Shown here piece after piece: positions 3,467-60,403 of a DNA stretch of 64,000 nt. Within the stretch, counting starts at the first letter, position 1. Every line of letters begins with the position of its first letter. This stretch comes from Acidobacteriota bacterium. Its GTDB lineage: Bacteria > Acidobacteriota > Thermoanaerobaculia > Gp7-AA8. The notes under the pieces are model-generated. The model saw nothing but the letters and a program-made list of their open reading frames with translations. It was not told the DNA's origin and did no database searches. Made by a program: the position numbers and the translations under genes. The stretch is from assembly GCA_003223645.1 (NCBI GenBank), contig QHVT01000004.1, forward strand, positions 59,334-123,333. The letters are read 5' to 3'.

Positions 3467-3496
3467 TTTGCTTTGTGTCCCTTTTGAGAGACGCCG

Positions 3497-3945
3497 GTGA
3501 CGAAAGATCACGCTGCTCTATAGTTTTAAGAGACATGGGTGATGAAAGATCACGTCGCTGCGTCGTTTTAGGCGACATGCGTGATGAAAGATCAAGTCGC
3601 TCTGTCGTTTTAAGAGACATTCGTGATGAAAGATCACGCTGCTCTCTCGTTTTGACAGACATGCGTGACGAAAGATCACGCCGCTCTCTCGTTTCCACAG
3701 ACATGCGTGACGAAAGACCACGCCGCTCTCTCGTTTCACACACCTGCGTGACGAAAGACCACGCCGCTCTCTCGTTTTCACAGACATGCGTGATGAAAGA
3801 TCACGCCGCTCTCTCGTTTCGACAGACATGCGTGACGAAAGATCACGCCGCTCTCTCGTTTCACAGACAGGCGTGACAAAAGATCACGCTGCTCTATCGC
3901 TTTAACAGAAATGCGTGATGAACGATCACGGATGAACGTCTCCAC
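3497..3945. repeat. Tandem array, ~10.5 copies of a 41-42 bp unit (gtgaYgaaagaYcacgccgctctctcgttttcacagacatgc); each unit carries a GTGAT-N5-ATCAC inverted repeat
   Basis: Direct reading shows 10 full units plus a partial one between the phosphoesterase and sulfatase genes. Units are 41 or 42 bp, so the array is not coding. Variation is scattered and there are no unique spacers. Confidence 0.9.
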
Positions 3946-12968: not shown

Positions 12969-15938
12969 ATGTCCATCTTCCACCGTTCGATCCTCGTCTT
13001 TCTCGCGCTGCTCGTCACCGTCACCGCCTTCGCCCAGGGTCTCACCACCGGCACGCTCATCGGCACCGCCACGAGCGAAGGCAACCCGCTCCCCGGCGTC
13101 TCCGTCACCGCATCCTCGAGCAAGCTTCAGGGAACGCGCTCGACGACCACCGGCGACGGCGGCGGCTTCGTGTTTCCCGCGCTGCCGCCGGGCGACTACA
13201 CCGTCACGTTCGAGCTCAGCGGCATGCAGAAGATCGAGAAGAAGGTGACGATCGCCGTCGCGCAAACGAGCCGCGCCGACGCCGATCTCAAAGTCGCCGC
13301 GGTCTCCGAAGCGCTGATCGTGACGGCAGCGGCGCCGCCCGCAGTCGAGACGGTCGAAATCGCGACCAACTTCACGCGCGACGAGATCAACCAGCTTCCC
13401 ACCGGCCGCACGATCGACGACGTCACGCGCCTCGCGCCCGGCGTCAACGAGGCGGGGCCGAACAATCAGATCGTCATCTCCGGCGCGAACTCGTACGACA
13501 ACCTCTTCCTCGTCGACGGCGTCATCGTCAACGAGAACCTGCGCGGACAACCGAACCCGCTCTACATCGAAGACGCAATCCAGGAGACGACAGTCCTCAG
13601 CGGCGGCATCTCCGCGGAGTTCGGACGCTTCACCGGCGGCGTGGTCAGCACGATCACGAAGTCGGGCGGCAACGACTTCTCGGGATCGATCCGCGACTCG
13701 CTGACGAATCCGAACTGGACGGAGAAGTCGGCGTTCACCGCGCAGGTCGATCCGATCGACGACGTCAACAGCTCGTATGAAGGAACGTTCGGCGGACGCA
13801 TCATCCGCGACCGCCTCTGGTTCTTCGCCGCCGGCCGCTACACGAAATCCGATCTCTCCCGGCAGACGACGCTGACCAACATCCCGTATGTCTTCGGCAG
13901 CGAGGACAAGCGGTTCGAAGCGAAGTTCACGGGACAAATCACGCCGAAGCATTCGCTCGTCGGCGCGTACATCAACAGTAAGGACATCCGCGAAAACAAC
14001 GTCAGCGGCGGACGCGTCGTCGATCTGCGCAGCCTCGCGCCGTTCAACCGCCCGCGTACGCTCTTCTCGTTCAATTACAACGGCATTCTCACCGACAAGC
14101 TGCTGCTCGAAGGTCAGCTGAGCCGGATGAACGACAAGTTCACGAACGGCGCGGAGACGCGTGATCTCATCGACGGCACGCTGCTCGTCGACGACGACGC
14201 CGGCGTGCGCGGATGGTCGCCGACGTTCTGCGGCTCGCCGTGTCCCGCGAAGCAGCGCAACAACCGCGGCTGGCTCGCGAAAGGCTCGTACTTCCTGTCA
14301 ACGAGATCGGCCGGCAATCACAGCCTCTCCAGCGGCGTCGAAGAGTTCCGCCAGCTGCGCAACGAAAACAATTTCCAGTCCGGCAGCGACTTCCGCATCC
14401 ACGGCAATTTCGTCTTCGTCAACGGACAGGAGTTCTTCACCGTCACGCCGGACAACGGACAGATCGAGTGGGACCCGGTGCCCGCGCTTTCGCAGACGTC
14501 CGACTTCGGCACGCGCTCGCTCTTCGTCAACGACCGATGGGACTTCACGAAGCACTGGAGCTTCAACGCCGGCGCGCGCTACGACAAAGCGTCCGGTGAA
14601 GATCAGGCCGGACACAAAACCGTCGACGACTCCGCGATCAGTCCGCGCCTCGCCGCGACGTACGACCTGCGCGGCGACGGACGCCAGCGCTTCGGCGCGA
14701 CGTACGGCAAGTACGTTTCCAAAGTCGATCAGGGACCGGCCGACAACACCGCCACCGCCGGCCGCTACGCGTCGTATTACTGGGACTACAAAGGACCGAT
14801 CATCAATCCGACAGGTACGCCGACGAGTCAGCTCGTGCCGATGCCCGAGTTGATCCGCCAGGTCTTCAATTGGTTCAACTCCGTAGGCGGCACGAACAAC
14901 ACCGCGCTCCTCAACAGCGTGTTCATCCCCGGCGTGACGACGCGCTTTGATCATTCGTTGAAGGCGCCAAGCATGACCGAGATGACGGTCGGGTACGCGA
15001 TGCAGTTCGGCAAGGGCTACATGCGCGTCGACGCGATTCATCGCGACTGGACGGACTTCTATGTCGTCCGCCGCAGTCTGGCGACCGGAAAAGCAACGGG
15101 ACCCGACGGCGATCTGTTCGATCAGGGCGTGATCGAAAACGCCAGTGCAGGTTTGAGCCGCGAATATCAGGGCCTGCAGCTGCAAGGCAACTATCGCTTC
15201 GCCCCCGCGCTGCTCCTCGGCGGCAATTACACGTGGTCGAAGCTGCGCGGCAACGTCGAAGGCGAGCAGCCGAGCTTCGCGACGACGTTCACCGACTTTC
15301 ACAACTATCCCGAGTACACCGATTTCGAGCAGAACCACCCCGTCGGCTACCTCGGGCCGGACATGCGCCATCGCACAAACATCTGGCTCTCGTACGACCA
15401 CGACCTCGGCTTCGGCCGCATGAACCTCACGCTCCTCGAGCGCTATCACTCCGCGCTGTCGTACTCCGCCGTCGCGACGATCGACGTGCGCAAAACATCG
15501 AGCAACGGTCCCGCGAACGGCGTCGTCAATCCGGGCTACGAAGTGCCGCCGTCGTCCGTCACGTACTACTTCAGCAAACGCGGCGCGTTCCGCGTCGATG
15601 ACATCACCTCGACGGACCTCGGCATCAACTATTACGCGCCCGCATTTCACGGCGCGCGGTTCTTCGTCGAGGCTGACGTCCTCAATCTCTTCTCCGAGGA
15701 GGGCATCGAAGATCCCGACTTCGTCAACAAGACCGTGCTGACGCGCCGCAACAACTCGTCGACCGCGCGCTGCCTGCAATCCGACGGCACGACTCGCTGC
15801 CTCGCGTTCAATCCGTTCACCGATAAGCCGGTCGAAGGTGTCCACTACCGCAAGAGCACGGCGTTCGGCCAACCGACGTCGGAGCTCGCGTACCAGACGC
15901 CGCGTACGTATCGCATTTCGATTGGTCTAAAGTTCTGA
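12969..15938 (+). CDS. TonB-dependent receptor with carboxypeptidase-regulatory-like N-terminal domain (paralog of 6065-9058)
   Basis: ATG 12969 preceded by ggagga. Signal MSIFHRSILVFLALLVTVTAFAQG. Near-identical domain order and many identical stretches to the first TBDR (QTSRADADLK, LFLVxGVxVNENLRGQ, ETTVLSGG). C-terminal ...YRISIGLKF. Confidence 0.9.
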   Translation: MSIFHRSILVFLALLVTVTAFAQGLTTGTLIGTATSEGNPLPGVSVTASSSKLQGTRSTTTGDGGGFVFPALPPGDYTVTFELSGMQKIEKKVTIAVAQTSRADADLKVAAVSEALIVTAAAPPAVETVEIATNFTRDEINQLPTGRTIDDVTRLAPGVNEAGPNNQIVISGANSYDNLFLVDGVIVNENLRGQPNPLYIEDAIQETTVLSGGISAEFGRFTGGVVSTITKSGGNDFSGSIRDSLTNPNWTEKSAFTAQVDPIDDVNSSYEGTFGGRIIRDRLWFFAAGRYTKSDLSRQTTLTNIPYVFGSEDKRFEAKFTGQITPKHSLVGAYINSKDIRENNVSGGRVVDLRSLAPFNRPRTLFSFNYNGILTDKLLLEGQLSRMNDKFTNGAETRDLIDGTLLVDDDAGVRGWSPTFCGSPCPAKQRNNRGWLAKGSYFLSTRSAGNHSLSSGVEEFRQLRNENNFQSGSDFRIHGNFVFVNGQEFFTVTPDNGQIEWDPVPALSQTSDFGTRSLFVNDRWDFTKHWSFNAGARYDKASGEDQAGHKTVDDSAISPRLAATYDLRGDGRQRFGATYGKYVSKVDQGPADNTATAGRYASYYWDYKGPIINPTGTPTSQLVPMPELIRQVFNWFNSVGGTNNTALLNSVFIPGVTTRFDHSLKAPSMTEMTVGYAMQFGKGYMRVDAIHRDWTDFYVVRRSLATGKATGPDGDLFDQGVIENASAGLSREYQGLQLQGNYRFAPALLLGGNYTWSKLRGNVEGEQPSFATTFTDFHNYPEYTDFEQNHPVGYLGPDMRHRTNIWLSYDHDLGFGRMNLTLLERYHSALSYSAVATIDVRKTSSNGPANGVVNPGYEVPPSSVTYYFSKRGAFRVDDITSTDLGINYYAPAFHGARFFVEADVLNLFSEEGIEDPDFVNKTVLTRRNNSSTARCLQSDGTTRCLAFNPFTDKPVEGVHYRKSTAFGQPTSELAYQTPRTYRISIGLKF

Positions 15939-19112: not shown

Positions 19113-19210
19113 GTGGAGCGGCGCCCGCCCTCGGGCGCCGAATTGCGAGCGGCCCGAATCTGGCGCGTCCTTTCGGCGGCCGAGGGCGGCCGCCGCTCCA
19201 CAGCTAGGAG
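19113..19210. repeat. GC-rich palindromic element (GTGGAGCGGCGCCCGCCCTCGGGCGCCG ... CGGCGGCCGAGGGCGGCCGCCGCTCCAC); second copy at 25410-25470
   Basis: Long imperfect inverted repeat immediately after the M20 stop, between convergent genes. The same core GAGCGGCGGCCGCCCTCGGCCGCCG recurs after the ADOP permease gene. Confidence 0.7.
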
Positions 19211-22355: not shown

Positions 22356-22378
22356 ATCACACCCACAATCGTTCTCTC

Positions 22379-22450
22379 CGCCATCCGCCATCCGCCATCC
22401 GCCATCCGCCATCCGCCATCCGCCATCTGCCATCTGCCATCTGCCATCTG
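22379..22450. repeat. Single-arm tandem heptamer array (GCCATCC)5(GCCATCT)5 in the moeA/padR divergent region
   Basis: Direct reading of ccatccgccatccgcc...atctgccatctgccatctg. Same heptamer as the hairpin family at 26597, 28066, 48498 and 60308. Confidence 0.9.
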
Positions 22451-22467
22451 GTCAATATAGCCACCAT

Positions 22468-26596: not shown

Positions 26597-26690
26597 CGAC
26601 GGATGGCGGATGGCAGATGGCGGATGGCAGAAGCGCCACACGGGTGGCGGGGCCATCTGCCATCTGCCATCTGCCATCGGGACGGGCGGC
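26597..26690. repeat. Hairpin element with heptamer-repeat arms: (GGATGGCR)x4 - loop agaagcgccacacgggtggcgggg - (CCATCTG)x3
   Basis: Between asd and lysC. The arms are reverse complements built from GGATGGC/GCCATCY units. Confidence 0.9.
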
Positions 26691-28065: not shown

Positions 28066-28150
28066 GCGGATGGCAGATGGCAGATGGCGGATGGCAGAAG
28101 AGGGTGCCGGGTGGTGGGGCCATCTGCGATCCGCCATCTGCCATCCGGGA
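28066..28150. repeat. Heptamer-armed hairpin (GGATGGCR)n - loop agaagagggtgccgggtggtgggg - (CCATCYG)n
   Basis: Between lysC and dapB. Same architecture as 26597-26690. Confidence 0.9.
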
Positions 28151-28159
28151 GGACGTGCG

Positions 28160-28798
28160 GTGAAGATCGCGCTGCACGGCTACGGCAAGATGGGACACGC
28201 CGTCGAGCGCGTCGCGAAGGAAACGGGACACGAGATCGTGCAGCCGGCCGACGCCGTGGTGCTGATCGATTTCTCTAACGCGAGCGTGCTCGATCGCGCG
28301 ATCGCGACCGCGATCGACAACCACCTCGACCTCGTCATCGGCACGACCGGCTGGAACGATCGCCTCGACGAAGTGCGCGACCGCGTGAAGAACATCGGCT
28401 GCGTCTACGCATCGAATTTTTCGCCCGGCGCAAATGCCGTGTTCGCGCTGGCGCGGCGCGCGGGAGAACTGTTCGCGCGCTTCCCGCAATACGCGGCGGG
28501 GATGGAAGAGCGGCATCACGCGCAGAAGAAAGACGCGCCGAGCGGAACGGCGCTGCGCATTGCGTCCGAGGTGCAGCAGGGAAGCGGGGGAACATTCGAT
28601 CCGCCGATCGCGGCGCTGCGCGTCGGCGCGGAATTCGGACTGCACACGCTCTACTTCGACTCGCCCGATGATCTCGTCGAGATCACGCATCGCGCGCGCG
28701 GCCGCGACGGATTCGCGCGCGGCGCGATCTTTGCGGCGGAGCTCGTGCGAGGGAAAAAGGGATTGTTTCGATTTGATGAATTGCTGGGAAGGGAATAG
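28160..28798 (+). CDS. dapB: 4-hydroxy-tetrahydrodipicolinate reductase (short form)
   Basis: GTG 28160 preceded by gggagg. VKIALHGYGKMG NAD motif, later GTTGW, HHAQKKDAPSGTA. Confidence 0.85.
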   Translation: MKIALHGYGKMGHAVERVAKETGHEIVQPADAVVLIDFSNASVLDRAIATAIDNHLDLVIGTTGWNDRLDEVRDRVKNIGCVYASNFSPGANAVFALARRAGELFARFPQYAAGMEERHHAQKKDAPSGTALRIASEVQQGSGGTFDPPIAALRVGAEFGLHTLYFDSPDDLVEITHRARGRDGFARGAIFAAELVRGKKGLFRFDELLGRE

Positions 28799-28872
28799 GA
28801 CAAATAGGACCTCTAGGACAGATAGGACGCCGATGTCCTATGCGTCCTATCTGTCCTATTCGTCCTAGTTGG
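28799..28872. repeat. Hairpin with (ATAGGAC)n / (GTCCTAT)n repeat arms
   Basis: ggacaaataggacctctaggacagataggacgccgatgtcctatgcgtcctatctgtcctattcgtcctag. A related element lies at 52193-52290. Confidence 0.9.
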
Positions 28873-30591: not shown

Positions 30592-31697
30592 AAGCCGATC
30601 GCCTCGCGAACATCGAGCTCTCGCTCATCCGCCAGATCAACGCGCTCGCCACGCCCTACTCCATCAACCTCGGCATCGGCGAGCCGAATCTCGCGCCCGA
30701 TGACACGCTGCGCGAATTCGCCGCGCGCGCCGCGACGCTGCCGTGGCAATACTCCGCGAACGCGGGCACGCTGTCGCTGCGCAAGAAATTGTGCGAGGGA
30801 ACGGAGTTCGATCCGAAGACCGAGGCGTGCGTCACCGCGGGCACGCAGGAAGCGCTGTTCGCGATCTTCACCGCGTACGTGAATCCCGGCGACGAAGTGC
30901 TCGTGCCGAATCCCGGCTTCGTGTCGTACGCGACGCTCGCGCGCATCTGCGGCGCAACGCCCGTTACGTATCAGCTCGATCCGCCGGAGTGGCACATTGA
31001 CGTCGACGCGCTGCGAAAAAAGATCACGCCGAAGACGAAGCTGATCGTCGTCAACTCGCCGTCGAATCCCCTCGGCTCGGTGATCGATCGCGAGACATTG
31101 CAGGTGATCGCGGACACCGGCGTGCTCGTCGTCAGCGATGAGATCTATCGCGAGATCTGGTACGACGCGTGGCCGGCGTCGATGGTCGGCATGGGCGACA
31201 ACGTGATCCTGATGAACGGCCTCTCGAAGAGCCACGGCATGACCGGCCTGCGCCTCGGGTGGATTCTCGCGCGCGCCGATGTGATGCAGCCGATCGTCAC
31301 CGCGCATCAGTACATCGCCACGTGCGCGTCCGTTTTCTCGCAGGCGCTCGCGGAGATGATCTTCGATCATCGCGAATGGAACGAGCAGTGGCTCGCCGGC
31401 GTGCGCGAGCAGTTCGCGGCGCAGCGCGAAGCAGCGTTGTACGCGATCCGCCACGAGCTCGACACCGAGCTCGATCCGCCACGCGGCGCGTTCTACGCGT
31501 TCGTGCCGATGCCTGCGTGCAACACGGTGGAGACCGCGAAAGAGCTCGCGACCGACGCCGCGGTGCTCGTGATTCCGGGAATCGCGTTCGGGAAAATGGG
31601 ACAGGGATTCGTGCGGGTCTCGTACGCCGCGCCCGTCGATCAGATAGCGACCGGAATCGAGCGCATCGGACGATGGTTGCGCGCAAAGGAAAGATGA
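30588..31697 (+). CDS. Class I/II PLP-dependent aminotransferase, likely N-succinyl-diaminopimelate aminotransferase
   Basis: GTG start overlapping the dapD stop (GTGA). [22 protein letters not shown] (PLP lysine), fold-type I. Confidence 0.8.
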
Positions 31698-32530
31698 AGG
31701 CAGAAGGCAGAAGGCAGAAGGCAGAAATAAGAAAGCGCCGAGGCACTCGTCTCGCGGTCTTTCTCACTTCTGCCTTCTGCCTTCTGCCTTCTGCCTTCAT
31801 TGCTCTCCCAGTTCACGCCCAAACGCCCGATTACTCCCAGTGGAACCGCGTCCTCTCCACGTACTACAACCCCGCGAAAGGCATGGACTACCGTGCGCTC
31901 AAAGCGCGCGACTTCAAGACCGTGCAGTCGCTGCGACAGCAGCTCGGCAAAGTGAACGTCGCCGCGCTCGATCGCAAGTCGCAGCTCGCGTACTGGATCA
32001 ACGTCTACAACATCAACACCGTCGCTACGGTGCTCGAGGCGTATCCGGTCGACTCGATCCGCGACATCTCGACGGATCTCATCATCCGCCTCAACGTTTT
32101 CAAGAAAGAACGCATCCCGTTCGGAAACGTCCAGCTTTCACTCGACGCCGTCGAGAACGGAAAGATTCGCGAGGGCTTTCACGATCCGCGCATTCACTTC
32201 GCGATCAACTGCGCGGCGAAAACGTGTCCGCCGATCCGGATGGAGGCGTTCAGCGGCCTGAGGCTCGACGCGCAGCTCGACGATCAGGCACGCGCGTTTC
32301 TCAACGGCCCGCACGGCGTCCGCTTCGAGCGCGACGGCGGCACGCTCACCATCCACACGACGAAAATCATGGACTGGTTCAGCGACGACTTCGAAAAATG
32401 GGGCGGCGGCAAAGCGAAGTTCATTCGCAAATACGTCCCTGCCGACAAACAGAAACTGATCGACTCCGCGAAAGAGATCGAGTTCGAGTACGACGACTAC
32501 GACTGGGACCTGAACGACTGGAAGCGCTAG
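31694..32530 (+). CDS. DUF547-domain protein with signal peptide
   Basis: ATG overlaps the aminotransferase stop (ATGA) with an aaggaaag RBS. YWINVYNINTV and FAINCAAKTCPP are DUF547 hallmarks. N-terminal 40 aa are encoded by the GAAGGCA hairpin. Confidence 0.7.
   Translation: MKAEGRRQKAEIRKRRGTRLAVFLTSAFCLLPSAFIALPVHAQTPDYSQWNRVLSTYYNPAKGMDYRALKARDFKTVQSLRQQLGKVNVAALDRKSQLAYWINVYNINTVATVLEAYPVDSIRDISTDLIIRLNVFKKERIPFGNVQLSLDAVENGKIREGFHDPRIHFAINCAAKTCPPIRMEAFSGLRLDAQLDDQARAFLNGPHGVRFERDGGTLTIHTTKIMDWFSDDFEKWGGGKAKFIRKYVPADKQKLIDSAKEIEFEYDDYDWDLNDWKR
31697..31800. repeat. Hairpin with (GAAGGCA)x3 / (TGCCTTC)x3 arms
   Basis: gaaggcagaaggcagaaggcagaaataagaaagcgccgaggcactcgtctcgcggtctttctcacttctgccttctgccttctgccttc. 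Confidence 0.9.
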
Positions 32531-32640
32531 ACAAAAGCAGAAAGCAAAAGGCAGAAAGCAGAAGTGGGAGCGGCGAGACCCAAAACGCTTTCGTCTTTAC
32601 TTCTGCTTTCTGCTTTTTGCTTTCTGCTTTCTGAGCACGC
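32531..32640. repeat. Hairpin with (RGCAGAA)n / (TTCTGCY)n arms
   Basis: aaaagcagaaagcaaaaggcagaaagcagaag...cttctgctttctgctttttgctttctgctttc, following the DUF547 stop. Confidence 0.9.
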
Positions 32641-39856: not shown

Positions 39857-40866
39857 CCGGAACGGCCGGCAGCGTTGGTTGGCCAAGCCTTCTTGCCAGG
39901 CGTTCGCACGTCGGAGTGCTTTCCGCCGCGCAGATGCCTGGGCTGCATCCACGCACACTTGCCGTTCGAGTCGATCACCTTCGCGCGCACGTACAGCTCG
40001 TTGCCGCGAAAGGCGTACGTCGCGCTTGTTCCCGCCGACTCTGAAAGCACGCGTCCGTTCGCGCCGATGAACTGGATGCGATAGCGCGCGTCGTTCTTCG
40101 CGTGCACCTTCACCGTCATCGACTTCGCGTCGACGGCGTAGTCTTCCAGCTCGACGCCGGTCGACGCATAGAAGTCGCCGCGCTCGATCGCGCCGAGGAT
40201 CGCCTTCGCGCTGCGCTCGTCCGCGTGCACGACGATCCACGCCTGTCCCGGCGGACGCGGATCTTTGTCCTCCGGCTTGAAGGTGTGCGAGTCGTCGACG
40301 CCAATCGCCCAGATGCGCTTGCCCGCGGTCAACAGCTTGTCCCACATCTCCTCGACCGACGGCGGTCCCTGCATGTTCACGTACGGATGTCCGCTCGCGA
40401 TCTCGAGCAGCGTCGCGCGCTCGACTTTCAGCAGTTCGTCAGCGCCGAACGCCCAGCCGAAGTTCGGATGATTGATCGCCGGAATCGCGCCGGCCGCGCG
40501 CACCGCGTCGACGTTCTTCTGCAGGTTCTCGACGATCGTCGCACCATGCTGCGGCTTGATCGCCTCTTCGAGGCCGATCGCGCAGACGTGCAGCGGTTTC
40601 TTCGGCAATCGATCGGTGACTTCTTCGCCGGGGATCATCAGCATGCCGCCGCCGTCGACACGCGTGACTTTGTCGTGATCGGTAATCACGAGAAAGTCGT
40701 AGCCGTGCTCGCGGTACCACTTCACGGTGTCGGCGGGCGAAGAATCGCCGTCGCTCTCCAGCGTGTGCGTGTGCGTGTTGCCCTTCAGCCACGCCGCATG
40801 CAGCGGCGCACACGCGAGGAATGCGAGAATGAAAATTACAGGAGGCCCGATGCGTCGCACGTTCAT
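39853..40866 (-). CDS. PHP-domain metal-dependent phosphoesterase with signal peptide
   Basis: ATG at 40866 (MNVRRIGPPVIFILAFLACAPLHAAWLKGNTHTHTLESDGD...VITDHD). PHP His/Asp motifs. Confidence 0.8.
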   Translation of the reverse strand: MNVRRIGPPVIFILAFLACAPLHAAWLKGNTHTHTLESDGDSSPADTVKWYREHGYDFLVITDHDKVTRVDGGGMLMIPGEEVTDRLPKKPLHVCAIGLEEAIKPQHGATIVENLQKNVDAVRAAGAIPAINHPNFGWAFGADELLKVERATLLEIASGHPYVNMQGPPSVEEMWDKLLTAGKRIWAIGVDDSHTFKPEDKDPRPPGQAWIVVHADERSAKAILGAIERGDFYASTGVELEDYAVDAKSMTVKVHAKNDARYRIQFIGANGRVLSESAGTSATYAFRGNELYVRAKVIDSNGKCAWMQPRHLRGGKHSDVRTPGKKAWPTNAAGRSG

Positions 40867-41509
40867 CTTCGTTCTTACTCTACTCGTCTGCGCGCCGCTC
40901 TTTGCGCAGGAAGCGAAATCGCAGGAGATCACGCCCGCCCAACTCTGGACGATCCTCGAGGCGGGGAACAAAACCTTCGTCGCCGGCAGCATCGCGTACA
41001 CGCAGCTCAAGACCGAGCGCTCGCAGCTCGCCGCTTATCAATCGCCGCCCGTGACGATCCTCTCGTGCTCCGACAGCCGCGTGCCGCCGGAGCTGATCTT
41101 CAATCAGTCGCTCGGCACCTTGTTCGTGATTCGCAGCGCGGGCAACGTCGTCGACGACTTCGGCATCGCGTCGATCGAATACGCAATCGCGCAGGGCTAC
41201 ACGAAACTGATCGTCGTCCTCGGCCACTCCAGCTGCGGCGCCGTGGTCGCCTCACTGGGCGGCGCTGATCCGGCAACGCCAGCGCTAACCGCGCTGGCGA
41301 TGCGCATCCGCTCCTCGTTCGTCGGCATTCCGTATGACTCACGCGACCCGAAGAACGTGCAGCGGGCGGTCGAAATGAACGCGAAAGCGGCAGCAGTATC
41401 GCTGCTTGCACGCAGCAAACTGATTCGCGATGCGGTCTTGACGGAGAAGGTGAAGATTGTGACGGCGAACTACGACTTGAGCACCGGAGAGGTGAAGCGC
41501 GTCGATTGA
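40850..41509 (+). CDS. Beta-class carbonic anhydrase with signal peptide
   Basis: ggagg RBS, MRRTFIFVLTLLVCAPLFAQ signal. CSDSRV and HSSCGA zinc-ligand motifs. Confidence 0.85.
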   Translation: MRRTFIFVLTLLVCAPLFAQEAKSQEITPAQLWTILEAGNKTFVAGSIAYTQLKTERSQLAAYQSPPVTILSCSDSRVPPELIFNQSLGTLFVIRSAGNVVDDFGIASIEYAIAQGYTKLIVVLGHSSCGAVVASLGGADPATPALTALAMRIRSSFVGIPYDSRDPKNVQRAVEMNAKAAAVSLLARSKLIRDAVLTEKVKIVTANYDLSTGEVKRVD

Positions 41510-41514
41510 TCTGG

Positions 41515-41830
41515 GATTCAACGCCGGGATTCCGGGATTCATCCCATGAGCTCTGGGATCGATCCCATGATTTCTGGCATCGATCCCATGAGCTCCGGGA
41601 TCGATCCCATGATTTCTGGCATCGATCCCATGATTTCTGGCATTGATCCCATGATTTCTGGGATCGATGCCATAGATTCTGGCATCGATCCCATAGATTC
41701 TGGGATTCATGCCAGAAATTCTGGGATTCATCCCATAGATTCTGGGATTGATCCCATGAGTTCTGGGATTCATGCCAGGATTCTGGGATTCATGCCAGGA
41801 TTCTGGTATTCGTCCCAGGATTGGGATTGT
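41515..41830. repeat. Tandem array of ~14 degenerate 21-bp units (gatYcatcccatgaKttctgg) between carbonic anhydrase and sucD
   Basis: Direct reading of gatcccatgatttctggcatc gatcccatgagctccgggatc ... . Units are 21 bp (two helical turns) and the region is non-coding between convergent genes. Confidence 0.85.
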
Positions 41831-42712
41831 CTATGAGGCTCTTCCCCGCCATACCTCTTCGAGCTTCTTCCCCATGTCGCTCGGCGCCTGGACGACGTGA
41901 ATGCCGGCCGCGCTCAGCGCGTCCATTTTTTCCGCCGCCGTTCCCTTGCCGCCGCTGATGATCGCGCCGGCGTGGCCCATGCGCCGTCCCGGAGGCGCGG
42001 TCTGCCCGGCGATGAACGCGACGACCGGCTTCGTCACATTCGCTTTCACGAATGCGGCCGCGTCTTCTTCCGCCGATCCGCCGATCTCGCCGATCATGAT
42101 GATCGCTTCCGTCGCATCGTCGGCCTGGAACGCCGCGAGGCAGTCGATGAAGTTCGTGCCCGGCAGCGGATCGCCGCCGATGCCGACCGCGGTCGACTGT
42201 CCGATGGTGCGCGTCTGCCCGACCGCCTCGTACGTCAGTGTTCCGGAGCGCGACACGATCCCGATCGGTCCCGGCTTGTGAATGTGTCCCGGCATGATCC
42301 CGATCTTGGCCTGCCCCGGCGTGATGATGCCGGGACAATTCGGTCCGATGAGGCGCGATCCCGTTCCGTGCTTCTTCAGAAAATCGTGCGCCTTCATCAT
42401 GTCGTTCACCGGAATGCCCTCGGTGATGCAGACGATCAATTCGATTCCGGCGTCGGCGGCCTCCATGATCGCGTCGGCCGCGAATGGCGGCGGCACGAAG
42501 ATCAGCGAGCAGTTCGCGCCCGCTTTCTCGCGCGCTTCCTTCACGTTGTTGAAGACCGGAAATCCCTCGTGCGTCGTTCCGCCCTTGCCCGGCGTCACGC
42601 CGCCGACGACCTGCGTTCCATAGTCGCGGCACTGGATCGCGTGGAACGTCCCCTCGCGGCCGGTGATGCCTTGAACGATGACCTTCGTGTCCTTGTCAGC
42701 CCAGATCGCCAT
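41831..42712 (-). CDS. sucD: Succinyl-CoA ligase subunit alpha
   Basis: 293 aa. [11 protein letters not shown], phospho-His region SRSGTLTYE, CoA-binding motifs. Confidence 0.95.
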
Positions 42713-42720
42713 TTCATCTC

Positions 42721-42832
42721 CATGTCATCCCGAGCGTGAGCGAGGGACCTGGGCGGGTGGGGCGCGCTGCATGTTCTTCGCAGCCCCACCCACCCAGGTC
42801 CCTCGCTCACGCTCGGGATGACATCGTTTTAT
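42721..42832. mobile_element. MITE-like ~105-bp perfect palindrome (gtcatcccgagcgtgagcgagggacctgggcgggtggggc ... gccccacccacccaggtccctcgctcacgctcgggatgac), intergenic copy between sucD and sucC
   Basis: ~40-bp arms that are exact reverse complements, with a ~20-nt loop. A second copy lies at 44488-44584. Confidence 0.8.
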
Positions 42833-43992
42833 CTTCCCTTCGCAGCCGCGACGACTTTCTGTGCCGCGTCCCACATTCCGTCCGCCGTGATCAGCGGCAG
42901 CCCCGAGTCCTTCAAAATCTGCTTGCCCAACTCGACGTTCGTGCCTTCGAGACGGACAACGACCGGCACCGGCAGTCCGACTTCGCGCGACGCGCTCACG
43001 ACGCCTTCCGCGATGCGATCGCCGCGCATGATGCCGCCGAAGATGTTGATCAGGATCGCCTTCACGTTCTTGTCGCTGAGGATGATGCGGAACGCGTTCT
43101 TCACCTGTTCCGCGCTCGCGCCGCCGCCGACGTCGAGGAAGTTCGCGGGCTCGCTGCCGGCGAGCTTGATGATGTCCATCGTCGCCATTGCCAGCCCCGC
43201 GCCGTTGACCATGCAGCCGACGTTTCCGTCGAGCTTGATGTAGTTGAGTCCGAATTTCGACGCCTCGACTTCCAGCGGATCTTCTTCGTTGAGATCGCGC
43301 ATCTCAACGACGTCCTTGTGCCGGAACAGCGCGTTGTCATCGAAGTTCATCTTGCAGTCGAGCGCGAGGACGTCGCCTTCCTTCGTCAGCAGCAGCGGAT
43401 TGATCTCCGCCAGCGACGCGTCGGTCTCGATGTACGCGCGCATCAGCTTCTGCACGAAGTCGACGCATTTCTTGAACGAGTCGCCGGTGAGTCCCAGCGC
43501 GTTCGCGACCGCGCGCGCCTGGAACGGCTGCACGCCGAGAACGCTGTCGACCGCCTCGCGATGAATCGCGTTCGGATCGTGCGCGGCGACTTCTTCGATG
43601 TCCATGCCGCCCTGCGCGGAGGCCATGATCACGTTCGCGCCGCGGGCGCGGTCGAGCGTGATGCCGAGGTAGAGCTCCTTGTCGATGTTGAGCGCTTCTT
43701 CGATCAGCACCTTGTGCACGACGCGCCCCTCGGGGCCGGTCTGGTGCGTCACGAGCGTCATTCCGATCATCTTCTTCGTCAGTTCGGACGCCTCGTCGGC
43801 GTCCTTCGCGAGCTTCACTCCGCCGCCCTTGCCGCGGCCGCCCGCGTGGATCTGCGCCTTCACGACGACGCGTCCACCGAGGTCCTTCGCAGCCTGGCGA
43901 GCCTCGTCGGGAGTCGTCACCACGACGCCGCGCGGAGTCGGAACTCCGTAGCGCCGCAGGATCTCTTTTGCCTGATACTCGTGGACTTTCAT
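42829..43992 (-). CDS. sucC: Succinyl-CoA ligase subunit beta
   Basis: 387 aa. [15 protein letters not shown]-grasp, GGxGKGGGV. Confidence 0.95.
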
Positions 43993-44002
43993 AGGGGGCG
44001 CG

Positions 44003-45157
44003 TTGTATCACATCGGAGATCAAGTCGTCGTCGAGCCGACCGCGCTGGTTGCGGGCGGCGCAGCACTCGCGCGCGTAGACGGTTTTCCCATCTTCGCCGT
44101 CAACGTTTTTCCCGGCGACATCGCGCGCGTCGAGCTCGTCGAAGTGAAGAAAGGCTTCGCGCGCGCGGACCTCGTCGAGCTCATCACGCCGAGCCCGTGG
44201 CGGCGAGCGGCACCGTGTCCGATCGCGAGCGAATGCGGCGGCTGCGATTGGACGGCGCTGCGGCTCGACAAACAACTCGAGGCGAAGCGCGGGATTTTGT
44301 TCGAGTCGCTGCGGCGAATCGGGAAGATTCATGACGCGCCGGAGATCACGCTGCATCCGTCCGCGCTCAACTATCGATTGCGATCGCGATTGCATCGCGA
44401 TGGAGATGCGATCGGGTTTTATGCGATGCGCTCGAATCGGGTCGTGCCGTTGGCGGAGGAGTGTGAAGTTGTGGGAGTCAACACCGCTCATGTCATCCCG
44501 AGCGTAGCGAGGGACCTGGGTGGGAGGGGCAACGCATCGCAACCCCACCCGCCCAGGTCCCTCGCTGACGCTCGGGAGGACATCTGGGAGATCGACGGCC
44601 GCGTCATCACAGAAGGCGAGCTCTCCATCGCCGGCTATCGTCTCAACACCGACGCGTTCTTCCAGGTCAACCGCCATCTCCTTCAAACGATGTTGCAGCT
44701 CGTGCAGACGCACGCGTCAGACGTGCGCTCGAAGAAGACAGCGATCGATTTGTACGCGGGCGTCGGCTTCTTCAGCGCGCCGCTCGCGCGGATGTTCGAG
44801 CGCGTGATCGCGGTCGAGGGCTCGCCGGTGTCGGCGCGCTACGCGCGCGTCAACCTGCCGGCGAACGCGAAGGTGATCGAGGCGCCGGTCGAGCGGCACA
44901 TAGCCAAGCTGCCGCCCGCGGAGTTCGTGTTCCTCGATCCGCCACGCGCGGGGACGCGTCCGGAGGTGATCCGTGCGATCGCGGAGCGGACGAAAGAAAA
45001 GATTGCGTACCTGTCGTGCGATCCCGTAACCTTCGCGCGTGACGCGAGCCGGCTGATCGCGTCGGGTTGGCGTCTGTCGACCCTCGACCTGCTCGACCTT
45101 TTCCCCAATACCCATCACGTCGAGACGCTCTCCTCGTTCGAGCGTGCGCAAACATGA
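44003..45157 (+). CDS. 23S rRNA (uracil-5-)-methyltransferase RlmD/RumA family (TRAM + 4Fe-4S + SAM MTase), carrying an in-frame 31-codon palindromic insertion
   Basis: TRAM-like N-terminus, Cys cluster ([12 protein letters not shown]), DAFFQVN hallmark, SAM motifs ([17 protein letters not shown]). Residues ~163-193 ([31 protein letters not shown]) are encoded by the palindromic element. Confidence 0.85.
44488..44584. mobile_element. Second copy of the MITE-like palindrome, inserted in-frame inside the RlmD/RumA-like CDS
   Basis: gtcatcccgagcgtagcgagggacctgggtgggaggggcaacgcatcgcaaccccacccgcccaggtccctcgctgacgctcgggaggacat. Arms match the 42721 copy with a few substitutions. Length ~93 bp (31 codons), and the reading frame of the flanking gene is preserved. 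Confidence 0.8.
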
Positions 45158-48497: not shown

Positions 48498-48660
48498 GAA
48501 GTGGATGGCGGATGGCGGATGGCCTAGGGCGGATGGCGGATGGCGGATGGCAGATGGCGGGTCGCGGATCGCGGATGGCGGGTCACAGACCGTGGTTTTC
48601 TTCCGCCATCCGCCATCTGCCATCTGCCATCCGCAATCTGCCGTCTGCCATCTGCCTCAT
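48498..48660. repeat. Largest heptamer-armed hairpin: (GGATGGCR)n left arm, central segment, (GCCATCYG)n right arm
   Basis: Direct reading. Both arms are >40 bp of GATGGCG/GATGGCA units and their complement. Confidence 0.9.
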
Positions 48661-50559: not shown

Positions 50560-52191
50560 ATGGAATCGGTCCCGCCTCGCGCGGAAGTCACTGTCTACTC
50601 GCCGCTGTTCTCGCCCTTTCGTCACACGCTCGACGGGAGTGCCGTGTCCATCGGAAGGGCATCCGACTGCTCGATTCCCATCAAGGATCGTTACCTCTCG
50701 CGCAAACACGCCGAGATCATCGCCGTCGGCGCGGCGTGGGTCCTCAAGGACCTCGGCAGCGCGAACGGCACGTACCTCAACGGCACGCGCGTCGAACGCG
50801 ACGAAGCGCTGAAGCCCGGCGACCGCATCCGCCTCGGCGACACCGAGATCGTCTTCGAGGCGACGGAGCGCAACACCGATCGCTTCATCGCCGTCGCCGA
50901 GTCGAAAGCCAGCGCCACGATCGCGATCCCCGTTCACGAGATCACCGACCGTCCCGAAGCCGTCGACATCGCGCGCCTGCAGACGCTCACGCTCCTCGCG
51001 CGCGAGCTGATCGAAGACCGCCCGATGGACGAGCTGTTCGGCTTCATCGTCGAGCGCGTGATGGAGCATTTGCATCCCTCGAGAGCGGCGATCGCGCTGC
51101 TTGCGTCGGACGGAAAGTCGTTCACCAAAGTCGAAGTGCGGCGGCAGGACAAGAACGACTCCAGCGAGCTGACGATCAGCCACACGCTCCTGGCCGACAT
51201 CGTCGAAGAGAAAAAAGCGCTCGCGTTCATGGACATCAGCGCGGACGACAAACTGAGCCGCGCGCAGTCGATCATCATGCAGGGCATCCACTCGATTCTC
51301 TGTGCACCGCTGATGATCGGCAACGCCGTGGTCGGCGTGCTGTATGTCGACTACCTCTTCACGCAGCGCTCGATCACCGAAGACGACGTGCGCCTCGTCG
51401 CGCAGATCGGACGCTTCGCCGCCATCAAGCTCGAGACGACGCGTCTCCGCGAAGACGCGATCCAGAAACGCATCATGGACGAGGAGCTGAAGACCGCGTC
51501 AAACATCCAGCGCCGGCTCCTTCCCGCCGCGCCGAGCGCGATTGCCGGCTACACGTTCGTCGGCCGCAACCAGCCGAGCCGCGTCGTCAGCGGCGACTAC
51601 TACGACTTTGCCGTCCGTCCGAACGGCAAGGTCTACTTCGTCATCGGCGACGTGAGCGGGAAAGGCGTGACCGCAGGAATCATGATGGCCGGCCTCCAGG
51701 TCGCATTCCGCATCTTCTCGAAGACCGATCCCGATCCGGCCACGCTGGTGACGCAGCTCAATCTCGCGCTCAAAGAGAATCTCCCGCAGTCGAAATTCGT
51801 CACGCTCTTCCTCGGACGCCTCGACACCACGACCGGCGTGATCGAGTACGTCAACGCCGGCCACACACCGCCGCTCTGGCTGCACAAACGCGGCGTCACG
51901 GAGTTGACGGAAAGCGATCTCCTCCTCGGCGTCGTCACGCGCGCCGAGTTCGTGAACCGCAAACTGCAGCTCGATGCCGGCGACTCGCTCATCCTCTTCA
52001 CCGACGGCGTGAGCGAAGCGCGCAACGCCGCCGACGCCGACCTCGGATCGAATCTCCCGCTCGGCTCGATGCACGGAGCCAGCGCGGAGCTCATCGCGCG
52101 CGCCGTCAACGAAGCCGTGATCGCGCACGTCGGCGCCGCAGAAAATCTCGAGGACGACGTCACGGTCGTCATCGTCAGCCGCTCCGCGTAG
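50560..52191 (+). CDS. FHA-GAF-PP2C (SpoIIE/RsbU-type) serine/threonine phosphatase
   Basis: N-terminal FHA (SIGRASDCSIPIKDRYLSRKHAEI...GSANGTYLNG), central GAF, C-terminal PP2C (SGDYYDF...FVIGDVSGKG...LFTDG). Confidence 0.85.
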   Translation: MESVPPRAEVTVYSPLFSPFRHTLDGSAVSIGRASDCSIPIKDRYLSRKHAEIIAVGAAWVLKDLGSANGTYLNGTRVERDEALKPGDRIRLGDTEIVFEATERNTDRFIAVAESKASATIAIPVHEITDRPEAVDIARLQTLTLLARELIEDRPMDELFGFIVERVMEHLHPSRAAIALLASDGKSFTKVEVRRQDKNDSSELTISHTLLADIVEEKKALAFMDISADDKLSRAQSIIMQGIHSILCAPLMIGNAVVGVLYVDYLFTQRSITEDDVRLVAQIGRFAAIKLETTRLREDAIQKRIMDEELKTASNIQRRLLPAAPSAIAGYTFVGRNQPSRVVSGDYYDFAVRPNGKVYFVIGDVSGKGVTAGIMMAGLQVAFRIFSKTDPDPATLVTQLNLALKENLPQSKFVTLFLGRLDTTTGVIEYVNAGHTPPLWLHKRGVTELTESDLLLGVVTRAEFVNRKLQLDAGDSLILFTDGVSEARNAADADLGSNLPLGSMHGASAELIARAVNEAVIAHVGAAENLEDDVTVVIVSRSA

Positions 52192-52192
52192 G

Positions 52193-52290
52193 ACTTTTAG
52201 GACGAATAGGACATCTAGGACAGATAGGATGTCCTAGAAGTCCTATTCGTCCTATTCGTCCTATTCGTCCTACCTGTCCTACCCCGCCTT
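52193..52290. repeat. Hairpin with (ATAGGAC)n / (GTCCTAT)n arms; second member of this family
   Basis: ggacttttaggacgaataggacatctaggacagataggatgtcctagaagtcctattcgtcctattcgtcctattcgtcctacctgtcctacc. Confidence 0.9.
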
Positions 52291-53701: not shown

Positions 53702-54062
53702 TGCCTTCTTCGTCAAGCCACGCGCGGATCGCGCGCGTGGCTTGATCGTTCTTGAAGTTGAAGAACTTCTTCTGCACGTAAATGTCCTCGGAGAGCTTCG
53801 CGCGAAATCCCTGCGGCTCGTCGATGAGCTGCGCGAGCTGATCTCGCAGCGGCGACCGGGCGTCCATTCGCTCGACGAACAGCCGCCGATCCTCCGCTTC
53901 GCTCTCCGGCGTGCGCGCCGGAACCCGCCGGAATCGCGATGGATCACCGGGCGGATCGTCATCGAGCGGGACGTCGAGAATTTCGCCGGTCTCGAGGTCG
54001 AGGTAATGCGCCAGCGCAACGCCGAGGTACGCGACTTGAAGGCCGTCGAGGTCCAGGCTCAT
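53691..54062 (-). CDS. Hypothetical protein (124 aa)
   Basis: ATG at ~54062 at the edge of a hairpin repeat; the rest of the listed ORF upstream is repeat-derived. No family recognised. Confidence 0.4.
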   Translation of the reverse strand: MSLDLDGLQVAYLGVALAHYLDLETGEILDVPLDDDPPGDPSRFRRVPARTPESEAEDRRLFVERMDARSPLRDQLAQLIDEPQGFRAKLSEDIYVQKKFFNFKNDQATRAIRAWLDEEGISE

Positions 54063-54124
54063 GGGCTCATAGTCGCATAGGCTCATAGAAACTATGCGCC
54101 CGTGAGCCTGTGAGCCCATGCGCC
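54063..54124. repeat. Hairpin with GGCTCATAG-type repeat arms
   Basis: gggctcatagtcgcataggctcatagaaactatgcgcccgtgagcctgtgagccc, in the divergent region before murQ. Confidence 0.8.
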
Positions 54125-58026: not shown

Positions 58027-58137
58027 TGACACGCGGAGTGGTACGCGCCTCCGGCGCGCCTCCCGTCCCCCCAAAGGCGCGCCGGAGGCGCGCACCACTC
58101 CAACGGTTTGAGACGGTAGCTGACGCAGGCGTGAGTT

Positions 58138-58992: not shown

Positions 58993-60314
58993 AGAATCAC
59001 GGAAAACACATCAAGCACATCGAGCACGTCGCCGGCACGACGTACGTCCGCTTGCCGATCATCGCGTTCATCGGCGGCCTGCTCGCGCTCATCGTCCTCA
59101 CGATCGCGTTCTGGTCGGCGAAGCGAAAGCAGGACGCGAAGCTGAACGTGAAGTCGGCGTCGGAGATCCGCACGCTTCTTCCCTCGCTCGTCGGCCTCAC
59201 GCAGTCGACGCTCGACGGCGGCAACAGCGTCCAGGTCCTGCAGAACGGCAACGGATTTTTCCCGCCGATGCTGCGCGACATCGCCGCCGCCCGCGAGAGC
59301 GTGCACGTCGAGACATACATCTGGAGCAAGAGCGCGTTCGCGACGCAGTTTGCGCAATCGCTCGCGGCGAAAGCGCGGCAGGGCGTCGAAGTGCGCGTGC
59401 TCGTCGACGCGTCCGGCGGACGCGATCTCAAGGGCGACACGCAGAAGATCCTGGAGGACGCCGGCGCAAAGGTCGCGCATTTTCATCCCATCCGCATCAG
59501 CAACCTCGGCCGTCTGAACAATCGCGATCACCGCAAGCTCGTCATCATCGACGGCCGCATCGCCTACACCGGCGGCCACGGCATTTCCGCGAACTGGACG
59601 GGCGACGCGCAGGACAAAGAGCATTGGCGCGACACGGGGCTGCGCATCAGCGGCCCGGTCGTCAATCGATTGCAGGCGTGCTTCTCCGAAAACTGGATCG
59701 AGGAGACCGGCGAGATTCCCGCGGGCGACAAGTTCTTTCCGCACATCGCGCCGGCAGGCCCCACCGAGGCGCACGTCGCGTACACGTCGCCGACCGGCAG
59801 CATGTCGTCGGTGGAGATCCTCTACTACCTCGCCATCAAATCCGCGCGGCGCGAGATCCTGATTCAGAATCCATATCTGCTGCCGAACGAGGAGGCGATC
59901 AACGCGCTCGAAGACGCGGTGAAGCGCGGCGTCGACGTGCGCATCATGGTCCCGTCGACCGACGCGACCGACAGCGCGGTCGTGCAGCACGCGAGTCATC
60001 ATCACTTCGGCACGCTGCTCAAGCGCGGGATCAAGCTGTACGAGTACAAACACACGCTGCTGCATCAGAAAGTGATCGTCGTCGACGGCATCTGGTCGTC
60101 CGTCGGCTCGACGAATTTCGACGAGCGCTCGTTCCAGCTCAACGACGAAGTGAACATCGGCCTCCTCGACGCGAACGTCGCCGCGCAGCTGCGCAGCGCG
60201 TTTCAATCCGACCTTCGTTACTGCACGCAACGCCACTTCAACGAATGGCAGAAGCGCTCGCTGTGGCACAAGTTGGAGGATGGGCTGGCATACTTGGCAC
60301 ATGCGCAGATGTAG
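58989..60314 (+). CDS. Phospholipase D-family protein, cardiolipin synthase-like (two HKD motifs)
   Basis: TM anchor, HKD1 RDHRKLVIIDG and HKD2 HQKVIVVDG...GSTNFD. ATGA overlap with the EEP gene. Confidence 0.85.
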   Translation: MKNHGKHIKHIEHVAGTTYVRLPIIAFIGGLLALIVLTIAFWSAKRKQDAKLNVKSASEIRTLLPSLVGLTQSTLDGGNSVQVLQNGNGFFPPMLRDIAAARESVHVETYIWSKSAFATQFAQSLAAKARQGVEVRVLVDASGGRDLKGDTQKILEDAGAKVAHFHPIRISNLGRLNNRDHRKLVIIDGRIAYTGGHGISANWTGDAQDKEHWRDTGLRISGPVVNRLQACFSENWIEETGEIPAGDKFFPHIAPAGPTEAHVAYTSPTGSMSSVEILYYLAIKSARREILIQNPYLLPNEEAINALEDAVKRGVDVRIMVPSTDATDSAVVQHASHHHFGTLLKRGIKLYEYKHTLLHQKVIVVDGIWSSVGSTNFDERSFQLNDEVNIGLLDANVAAQLRSAFQSDLRYCTQRHFNEWQKRSLWHKLEDGLAYLAHAQM

Positions 60315-60400
60315 ATGGCAGATGGCAGATGGCGGATGGCGGATGGCCCCACCGCCCGGCTCGCGCTCCTGCCATCTGCCATCTGCCATCCGCCATCTGC
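60308..60400. repeat. Heptamer-armed hairpin (TAGATGGCAGATGGCAGATGGCGGATGGCGGATGGC - loop - GCCATCTGCCATCTGCCATCCGCCATCTGC)
   Basis: Direct reading, between the PLD-like and GNAT genes. Confidence 0.9.
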
Positions 60401-60403
60401 ATC

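Follow-up and report, generated by a model that had tools for sequence, protein, structure and literature searches.

Rickettsia palindromic elements (RPEs), reportedly described by Ogata et al. in 2000, are repeats inserted in frame in protein-coding genes. A palindrome of this kind is the subject of the present work. It occurs twice in a 64,000-nt stretch of DNA, hereafter the window, from an Acidobacteriota bacterium (Thermoanaerobaculia; Gp7-AA8; assembly GCA_003223645.1, contig QHVT01000004.1, positions 59,334-123,333), where one copy lies between the succinyl-CoA ligase genes sucC and sucD and the other lies in frame within rlmD, the gene of an rRNA methyltransferase. Both copies very probably belong to a dispersed, non-coding and selfish family of palindromic repeats built as head-to-head dimers of repetitive extragenic palindromic (REP) units, of which the rlmD copy is tolerated and translated.

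Known systems and the place of the new element

At the level of architecture, the closest described repeats are those of the CGTC-tagged REP superfamily, which includes the dRS3 repeats of Neisseria and the elements RPE-4 and RPE-6 of Rickettsia (Di Nocera 2013, PMC3733652); the comparison made here is with the text, Table 1 and Additional file 3 of that paper. According to these parts, the CGTC tag often appears as TGTC (or CCTC) and precedes an 8-9-bp stem starting with A-T, T-A, and the published families (CGTC-1 to CGTC-4) have loops of 4-5 nt and tails of 3 nt with the consensus CCA. Most of these repeats form head-to-head homodimers with spacers of 20-100 nt whose ends are possibly complementary, they are presented there without a linked transposase, and the phyla for which the same parts report them are Proteobacteria, Chlorobi, Bacteroidetes, Spirochaetes and Thermotogae alone. 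A CGTC-3 dimer is also given for the UvrC protein of Xanthobacter autotrophicus (Xaut_2344, residues 550-585). REPINs, in turn, consist of two inverted REPs that make one long hairpin (Bertels and Rainey 2011, PMC3116915).

The element of the window resembles the CGTC superfamily, as presented in those parts, in its outer CGTC/TGTC tag, in a proposed stem opening with A-T/T-A, in its tag-outside dimers, mostly homodimers, and in the existence of occasional in-frame intragenic copies. The intragenic peptides given for CGTC repeats (VIPAKAGIQ...LDSRLRGND and VIPGLDPGIH...DGRVKPGHD) start with V-I-P and end with ...D, the same grammar as the VIPSVARDL... segment of the window, and UvrC is decorated in both. 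In contrast, the unit ATCCC-GA-GC-GNA-GC-GA-GGGAT is new with respect to the families of that source, and the present element is also found in Acidobacteriota, Verrucomicrobiota, Gemmatimonadota, Planctomycetota and Chloroflexota. A full-text literature search for the arm sequence returned no matching paper. Because of its 3-nt loop, tandem G.A, CTN tail and a sequence absent from the searched literature, the element is treated here as a putative new family with CGTC-superfamily architecture, separate from CGTC-1 to CGTC-4, whose descriptions differ.

Like REPINs, the element is a ~100-nt hairpin of two inverted units present in tens to hundreds of dispersed copies without target duplication. 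Unlike it, REPINs have GTAG-type ends, not a TGTC/CGTC tag, and a single-copy REP-associated tyrosine transposase (RAYT, a Y1 transposase) flanked by REPs. No Y1 enzyme or RAYT was found near copies by tblastn in 1.79 Mb of loci of 8-21 kb, a weak test, as the IS200 TnpA and Escherichia coli RAYT queries were approximate sequences. With RPEs the element shares the existence of translated palindromes, variable among orthologs, in loops of functional conserved proteins (RlmD, UvrC and a FAD-oxidase/Fe-S protein). The view of an earlier note on this DNA, which had seen here a dispersed palindromic repeat with an in-frame copy in the manner of RPEs, is borne out. It differs from RPEs in what is probably a separate sequence family, in host phylum (free-living soil Acidobacteriota), in GC content and in an rlmD insertion site that is common to several unrelated repeat families; as far as the consulted parts of the superfamily paper go (PMC3733652), the two are related only through the shared CGTC tag.

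Anatomy and spread of the element

The two palindromes of the window and their parts are as follows.

42722-42824, no strand: copy 1, a palindrome of 103 nt that fills the sucC-sucD intercistronic gap
42723-42751, plus strand: left REP unit of copy 1, TGTC-AT-CCC-GAGC-GTGA-GCGA-GGGAC-CTG
42795-42823, minus strand: right REP unit of copy 1, the identical 30-mer, with 0 mismatches on both strands
44490-44583, no strand: copy 2, a palindrome of 94 nt and head-to-head REP dimer within rlmD, without counterpart in insert-free orthologs
44491-44518, plus strand: left REP unit of copy 2, with TGTC tag, AT-CCC-GA-GC stem, GTA loop, GC-GA-GGG-AC stem and CTG tail
44519-44553, no strand: spacer and apex of copy 2, GGTGGGAGGGGC...GCCCCACCCGCC
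44554-44582, minus strand: right REP unit of copy 2, TGTC-CT-CCC-GAGC-GTCA-GCGA-GGGAC-CTG, with one A-T pair mismatched and a loop of 4 nt

When both copies are aligned in both orientations, their homology ends abruptly at ATGTCAT...ATGACAT. The two palindromes of ~100 bp that the earlier note had recognised thus exist, with limits that shift from 42721-42832 and 44488-44584 to those given above. The arms of copy 1 measure 42 nt and are 98% complementary, those of copy 2 differ by a one-base indel and three mismatches, the spacers are of ~35-43 nt, and all four arms carry the TGTC tag. Both copies are predicted to fold far better than shuffled sequences: free energies (dG) are -101/-108 kcal/mol as RNA (z = -16/-18) and -61 kcal/mol as DNA (z = -14) for copy 1, and -83/-86 kcal/mol as RNA (z about -10) and -47 kcal/mol as DNA (z = -11.8) for copy 2. 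The 30-nt arm motif, with up to three mismatches allowed, matches in the window at these two loci alone (expected 0, from 100 shuffles). Across the whole window no Rfam family reached its gathering score, relaxed thresholds returned generic long-hairpin miRNA models alone, far under their cut-offs, and a known RNA family was rejected for want of a matching Rfam entry.

Comparison of 230 arms gives the unit a common grammar, (T/C)GTC, AT CCC GA GC, GNA, GC GA GGG AT, CTN, in which the tag is TGTC in 181 arms and CGTC in 37, the loop has 3 nt (GNA) in 173 and 4 nt in 24, and the tail is CTG/CTT/CTC in 154 and CCN in 40. The stem counts nine positions, namely seven Watson-Crick pairs plus the tandem G.A, and its triplets covary within arms (CCC/GGG in 184 of the 230, CCT/AGG in 12, TCC/GGA in three and GCT/AGC in one). 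It is proposed that the unit d(ATCCCGAGCGNAGCGAGGGAT) forms a hairpin with a GNA triloop and a tandem G.A; its GC-GNA-GC apex matches the d(GCGNAGC) DNA mini-hairpin, known for its high stability.

The spread of the element was followed by a cross-phylum scan of one genome per species in which the termini alone were fixed (TCATCCCGAGCG-N40-70-CGCTCGGGATGA). Relatives are labelled L### for loci of 8-21 kb of metagenome or genome DNA and P#### for proteins. The scan yielded at least 125 exact-terminus copies in at least 120 loci and at least seven phyla, all of them tag-outside dimers, which is the orientation that the pattern demanded of both arms, other layouts of REP units being invisible to it. 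Further copies, which the earlier note had proposed to look for, are abundant in relatives as well as in other phyla; no copy was found in viral contigs. Carriers among the matches listed are Verrucomicrobiota, Gemmatimonadota, Acidobacteriota, Planctomycetota, Chloroflexota and others, with Alpha- and Gammaproteobacteria represented by Reyranella, Vineibacter, Luteimonas and Legionella; complete genomes in which the repeat is plentiful are those of Reyranella (NZ_OZ257242 and NZ_OZ257251), Vineibacter terrae CC-CFT640 and a member of the Lysobacterales (OZ257239). Among the same matches the outer ~25 bp keep their sequence between phyla and the apex is lineage-specific, the CCTGGGCGGGTGGGGC apex of the window copies occurring in Thermoanaerobaculia/Acidobacteriota loci alone (L022, L023, L041, L047, L057, L081, L084, L107, L137 and L193). 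Thermoanaerobaculia DNA holds ~23 intact copies per 0.91 Mb.

Several properties of these copies bear on how they multiply. Canonical dimers have spacers of 16-53 nt (median 23.5), and the loop base is the same in both arms of 41 of 56 dimers, with 19.9 expected; because the arms agree in this way, what replicates appears to be the dimer and not the single unit. At the element ends, complementarity is 0.97, 0.75 and 0.55 at the three tag positions and then falls to background. In 134 copies, direct repeats of 3-8 nt do not exceed chance, whether right at the ends of the element or past the tag, so that no target-site duplication was detected. Flanking complementarity past the tag reveals copies nested in foreign palindromes in six of 134 cases (4.5%, vs 0.7% expected); insertion into the loops of existing hairpins was considered as a general mode and set aside as minor, enriched though it is.

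Some loci show local clustering and rearrangement of the element: two dimers stand 10 nt apart in L055 (324-498), a terminus is duplicated within a dimer in L108 (3630-3710), and a dimer of termini alone is found in L058 (5528-5607). At L188 (14366-14442) the variant element end ...CTCGGAATGAC meets the start of a lipoprotein-like open reading frame (M-T-LAALLAVAAC...), and the ATG in the element terminus may be the start codon of that gene.

The rlmD copy and its host gene

The host gene and the translated part of copy 2 are placed as follows.

44003-45157, plus strand: rlmD, a rumA-type gene for the 23S rRNA U1939 m5U methyltransferase of 384 aa, host of copy 2, assigned by TIGR00479, PF05958 and fold, and identical to database protein P0001
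44492-44584, plus strand: 31 element-encoded codons, RlmD residues 164-194 (VIPSVARDL...), without stop or frameshift

The protein scores as an RlmD equivalog (TIGR00479, 223.1 bits vs a cut-off of 183.55) and stays above the cut-off with and without the insert. Its predicted fold matches RlmCD and RumA in Foldseek, with template modelling scores of 0.74-0.78 and with TRAM, central and catalytic domains, and the iron-sulfur (Fe-S) cysteines C72, C78, C81 and C154 and the catalytic motifs are invariant. The earlier note had placed the insert between the Fe-S/TRAM part and the DAFFQVN core; this is refined to a position in the central domain, nine residues past the fourth Fe-S cysteine, C154, and 24 before DAFFQVN.

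The comparison sets for rlmD were 120 protein homologs and 80 orthologous metagenome loci. Among the homologs, the segment that links C154-EVVG with W-E-(L/I)-D varies greatly in length. Its basal state is a fixed segment of 36 nt, or 12 codons (xETARHPxEGET), present in 51 of the 80 loci; such basal sites are without hairpin signal (median z 0.15), and the long variants are palindromes. The HPxEGxT turn is kept in 44 of 121 orthologs spread over the whole tree, including relatives at d = 0.12. In the closest insert-free relative (L001/P0005, 83% identical) the site reads ...GCG CAC CAT CCA CGA GAA GGT CAA TCC TGG..., and in the window ...GCT CAT [GTC ATC CCG ... GAG GAC ATC] TGG.... The element had been said to add 31 codons in frame: the 31 codons do derive from the element and leave the frame intact, but they replace ~7 native ones (HPREGQS in L001/P0005), so that the net gain is 24. 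The same insert is carried by P0002/L002 (94% identical), P0003 (85%) and L126. The presence of the same residues in orthologs had been named as grounds for taking them as ancestral, and P0002 and P0003 do carry them; however, the short conserved HPREGQ turn is found in P0005, P0007 and P0018, which are as close to the window as the insert carriers. Because equally close orthologs have this turn and 51 of the 80 loci keep the basal 36-nt site, the 31-residue segment is evidently an insertion and not ancestral. That the residues were ancestral RlmD sequence, palindromic by chance, and the source of the intergenic copy is practically untenable given also that the same DNA lies in unrelated genes, in intergenic regions and in other phyla.

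The fate of the enzyme was read from substitution rates. The ratio of nonsynonymous to synonymous divergence (dN/dS) is 0.096 at dS 0.34 for the window compared with L002, which share the insert, and 0.093 against L003. To judge by this pattern, rlmD is alive under purifying selection, and the insertion is tolerated because the enzyme stayed under such selection. Of the two possibilities that the earlier note had left standing, the tolerated linker insertion holds and the recently inactivated gene is rejected, as both the low dN/dS between insert-bearing lineages and the TIGR00479 score above cut-off indicate. In the AlphaFold model the confidence score (predicted local distance difference test, pLDDT) is below 50 at residues 156-192, approximately the insert, and above 90 in the TRAM and catalytic domains. 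The model of a basal ortholog has a mean pLDDT of 88, and there the site is a turn (pLDDT 76-87) between helix 159-163 and strand 168-173. The insert is thus probably a disordered surface loop in the central domain that replaces a tight turn.

A second insertion point, WELPRGAGVPPAPGAPNAPVEF, is seen in the rlmD ortholog P0032 three residues past the tryptophan of the site, where a GVPP-type segment resembles the GTAG-19 REP peptides given for Opitutus terrae in the consulted parts of PMC3733652.

Translated copies in other genes

Other host proteins were sought by an analysis of open reading frames spanning elements in the loci, combined with Pfam; a 65-aa composite peptide query (43 candidates) missed rlmD. 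Most of the 171 elements in sampled loci are intergenic or lie in spurious GC-rich frames, and two are in real genes, where the frame that holds the element also encodes Pfam domains before and after it. In the UvrC protein of a Spartobacteria metagenome-assembled genome (MAG; L059) the element makes up residues 370-400, inside the RNase-H-like domain, and in a 990-aa FAD-oxidase/4Fe-4S/CCG protein of a Verrucomicrobia MAG (L076) it makes up residues 708-738, between domains.

The sucC-sucD junction

Copy 1 stands in a different setting, defined by these features.

42829-43992, minus strand: sucC, succinyl-CoA ligase beta subunit, upstream cistron
41831-42712, minus strand: sucD, succinyl-CoA ligase alpha subunit, downstream cistron
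42718-42721, minus strand: GGAG Shine-Dalgarno sequence of sucD, abutting the hairpin base and native, as element-free L125 and L130 have the homologous AGGAAGAGATCA-ATG

Between the stop of sucC (42829) and the start of sucD (42712) lies a gap of 116 nt, which the copy fills; in ~24 of 35 syntenic loci the gap is 0-3 nt. In the window, L003, L137 and L145 the junction holds the element or a closely similar form; it is empty in the 94%-identical L002, and remnants with decayed arms are left in L132, L142 and L144. The Shine-Dalgarno-like repeat on either side of copy 1 was considered as a target-site duplication and rejected, being native sequence in element-free loci. No T-run follows the hairpin 3' of copy 1, and the copy is therefore not an intrinsic terminator.

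In the three loci with remnants the sucC stop is placed just before the half-arms ...GAGCG.AGCGA.GAAGGATCT, and the TGA of the variant terminus GTCATCCTGA may now end sucC there, adding a few element-encoded residues. On the other side of sucD, at 41468-41803, a tandem array repeats a 21-bp unit with the palindrome GGGATCGATCCC ~16 times; it lies between the 3' end of sucD and the gene of carbonic anhydrase (40727-41509).

Recurrent occupation of the two sites

The rlmD turn has been filled repeatedly and by different repeats. At least seven sequence-unrelated palindrome families occupy one segment of ~15 nt, and five of the palindrome types found there are also dispersed elsewhere in the sampled DNA. 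As hairpins, the long rlmD variants reach z < -3 in 13 of 26 cases and z < -2 in 18, and all of them keep T-A-R and E-x-W and are without H-P-x-E-G. On a neighbour-joining tree of 121 orthologs the filled or basal state requires 27 Fitch parsimony steps (shuffled labels: mean 36, minimum 28). Were regeneration of the basal sequence impossible, the number of separate filled clades would be at least 38. Of 109 nearest-neighbour pairs, only 32 have the same classified state. The state is thus scattered over the tree in an almost random manner.

This recurrence would follow if both sites are permissive and the filled state is irreversible, to which an insertion preference could add. One alternative holds that the two sites are true integration hotspots, where several REP families target a local DNA feature by a shared mechanism, for instance a fork-stalling sequence at which replacement is directed by a single-strand hairpin or templated by microhomology, so that insertion bias and not tolerance plus irreversibility would explain the pattern. 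It is a doubtful possibility, in favor of which several observations speak. Besides the number of unrelated families in one short segment, five of them dispersed elsewhere, and the near-random tree distribution, the families all displace the identical native codons, the sucC/sucD junction has been struck at least four times, and the copies nested in foreign palindromes exceed expectation. Short identities to the element end exist at the empty sites (CATCC in rlmD and GTCA at sucC/sucD), and REPs are known as targets of other mobile DNA, according to the part of PMC1525189 consulted. Against it, arm likeness at the basal rlmD site does not exceed that of other windows in the gene, a median of 27% of same-gene background windows scoring at least as high and only six of 51 basal sites falling in the top 5%; basal sites are also without hairpin signal, and a single sequence target cannot serve all of the families, as their ends are unrelated. 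The tree scatter could come from homologous recombination of alleles between relatives, which could also inflate the apparent gains, and the choice of rlmD for its insert introduces an ascertainment bias. A related candidate, in which the native site is a degenerate element arm that captures the repeat by homology, was rejected, as local alignment was no better there than in other windows of the same gene.

Origin of the element and remaining explanations

With dispersal, dimer anatomy, lack of target duplication, polymorphic presence, a tolerated in-frame insertion and purifying selection on the host gene all observed, the preferred reading of both copies as members of a selfish family of REP dimers can be given as a sequence of events. 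A trans-acting enzyme would, by analogy with REPs and REPINs (PMC3116915), copy pairs of REP-type stem-loop units of ~28 nt, with TGTC/CGTC outside and a lineage-specific, partly self-complementary spacer between them, in the form of one hairpin of single-stranded DNA; copying in this form would leave no target-site duplication. One copy came to lie between the stop codon of sucC and the ribosome-binding site of sucD, where it is simply a transcribed hairpin. The other replaced the H-P-x-E-G tight turn in the RlmD central domain and, as it is stop-free and a multiple of three, is translated as a 31-residue, probably disordered loop. Permissive sites of this kind would act as sinks that gather whichever palindromic families are active in each lineage, with a filled state that could not revert.

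A number of observations weigh against this account. Transposition is deduced, and the mobilising enzyme was not found in the 1.79 Mb where it was sought. The unit departs from the published CGTC families, with a loop of 3 and not 4-5 nt, a tail CTN and not CCA, and the tandem G.A. Folded as DNA, a lone unit reaches -3 to -4 kcal/mol and does not surpass its shuffles (z = -0.4 to -0.95), and as nearest-neighbour energies are not significant the unit stem rests on covariation from a few subfamilies. The REP units of the rlmD copy differ from those of L002 at one of 56 nt and the spacer at six of 35, with a proportion of synonymous differences (pS) of 0.27, and the low divergence of the units, from small counts, hints at function or ongoing conversion instead of pure neutrality. 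Finally, a passive sink alone explains neither the loss of the same ~5 native codons with every family nor the frequent changes of state (27 Fitch steps over 121 sequences).

The divergence just mentioned is one of the points in favor of a host function of the hairpins at the RNA or DNA level, be it as a hairpin that stabilises the sucC-sucD mRNA or decouples the two cistrons, as a translational pause or functional linker in RlmD, or as the site of a nucleoid or topology protein. Binding of a nucleoid or topology protein has been proposed for the REPs of E. coli. The sequence conservation of the outer stem across phyla points the same way, as does the placing of the hairpin, precisely in the space from the stop of sucC to the Shine-Dalgarno sequence of sucD, which it leaves free. 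Yet presence is polymorphic in close relatives, L002 having no sucC/sucD copy and L001 no rlmD copy, most orthologs are without the element and unrelated palindromes substitute at the same site, no Rfam match was obtained, and no T-run terminator follows copy 1. A host function is, on balance, unlikely.

Less likely still is a classical MITE (miniature inverted-repeat transposable element), that is, a deleted insertion sequence whose terminal inverted repeats, ending in GTCATCCCGAGCG, would be recognised by a DDE transposase. Bacterial MITEs such as Correia/NEMIS, ERIC and RUP (reviewed in PMC10969869) are, like the present element, small, non-coding, dispersed, bounded by inverted ends and sometimes co-transcribed or intragenic, and the ~65-120 nt size and occasional intragenic position seen here agree with that class. 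However, MITEs have terminal repeats of 15-30 bp round unrelated internal DNA, target-site duplications and a recognisable parent insertion sequence, none of which was found here: the inverted repeat spans the entire element and each arm is a tagged stem-loop, the 134 copies show no duplication of 2-8 nt, and no transposase-like frame with the same ends appeared in the 1.79 Mb of flanks, in a survey for Y1 enzymes alone. The MITE-like label of the earlier note, which was loose, is the wrong one for what is anatomically a head-to-head dimer of TGTC/CGTC-tagged REP units.

Other repeats in the window

The window contains repeats of other types. A different class of hairpin, with about ten instances in the 64 kb, has arms made of tandem arrays of a 7-mer (GGCGGAT/GGCAGAT, GAAGGCA, AAAGCAG) or a 9-mer (TAGGACnnn) facing a complementary array on the opposite arm; they lie at 22363-22459, 26602-26678, 28067-28147, 28793-28871, 31694-31800, 32534-32630, 48514-48656, 52188-52282, 54056-54124 and 60308-60403, and as L002 has CATCTGCCATCTGCCATCTGC near 14699 they are present in relatives too. 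GC-rich REP-like palindromes of other families at 19113-19201 (GTGGAGCGGCGCC...) and 58035-58101 (GGAGTGGTACGCGCC...) resemble family C, one of those found at the rlmD site (L148, L124). An array of at least nine copies of a 42-bp tandem repeat (60-90% identity) occupies 3441-3900, and a large diverged inverted duplication links 6342-8902 with 13125-15640 (72-84% identity, with one 53-nt stretch at 98%), which suggests a pair of paralogous genes or gene clusters in divergent orientation.

Implications

The element represents an undescribed family of a known class, that of tagged REP dimers that can be translated within genes as the RPEs of Rickettsia are. Conservation of its outer 25-bp stem in at least seven phyla, several of them without reported CGTC-type repeats, sharpens the question of what mobilises repeats that have no transposase of their own. 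Translated palindromes are, in addition, no oddity of Rickettsia, as they occur in free-living soil Acidobacteriota and Verrucomicrobiota and in housekeeping genes such as rlmD and uvrC. In genome annotation, inserts of this kind make proteins longer and give rise to small spurious open reading frames, for example MSEGPGRVG....

What most deserves further study is the hotspot at which several families meet in a single protein turn. With at least seven palindromes, the RlmD turn constitutes a natural allelic series in which insertion targeting can be set against tolerance, and in which the effect of a loop of 10-45 residues on an Fe-S RNA methyltransferase can be addressed. That the rlmD H-P-x-E-G turn and the sucC/sucD junction are real integration hotspots common to unrelated REP families can be put forward only tentatively, the odds being against it; if they are, a common host- or enzyme-mediated route would set hairpin repeats at specific sites, replacing native DNA, and CGTC/TGTC-tagged repeats, for which no transposase is known, may use that route.

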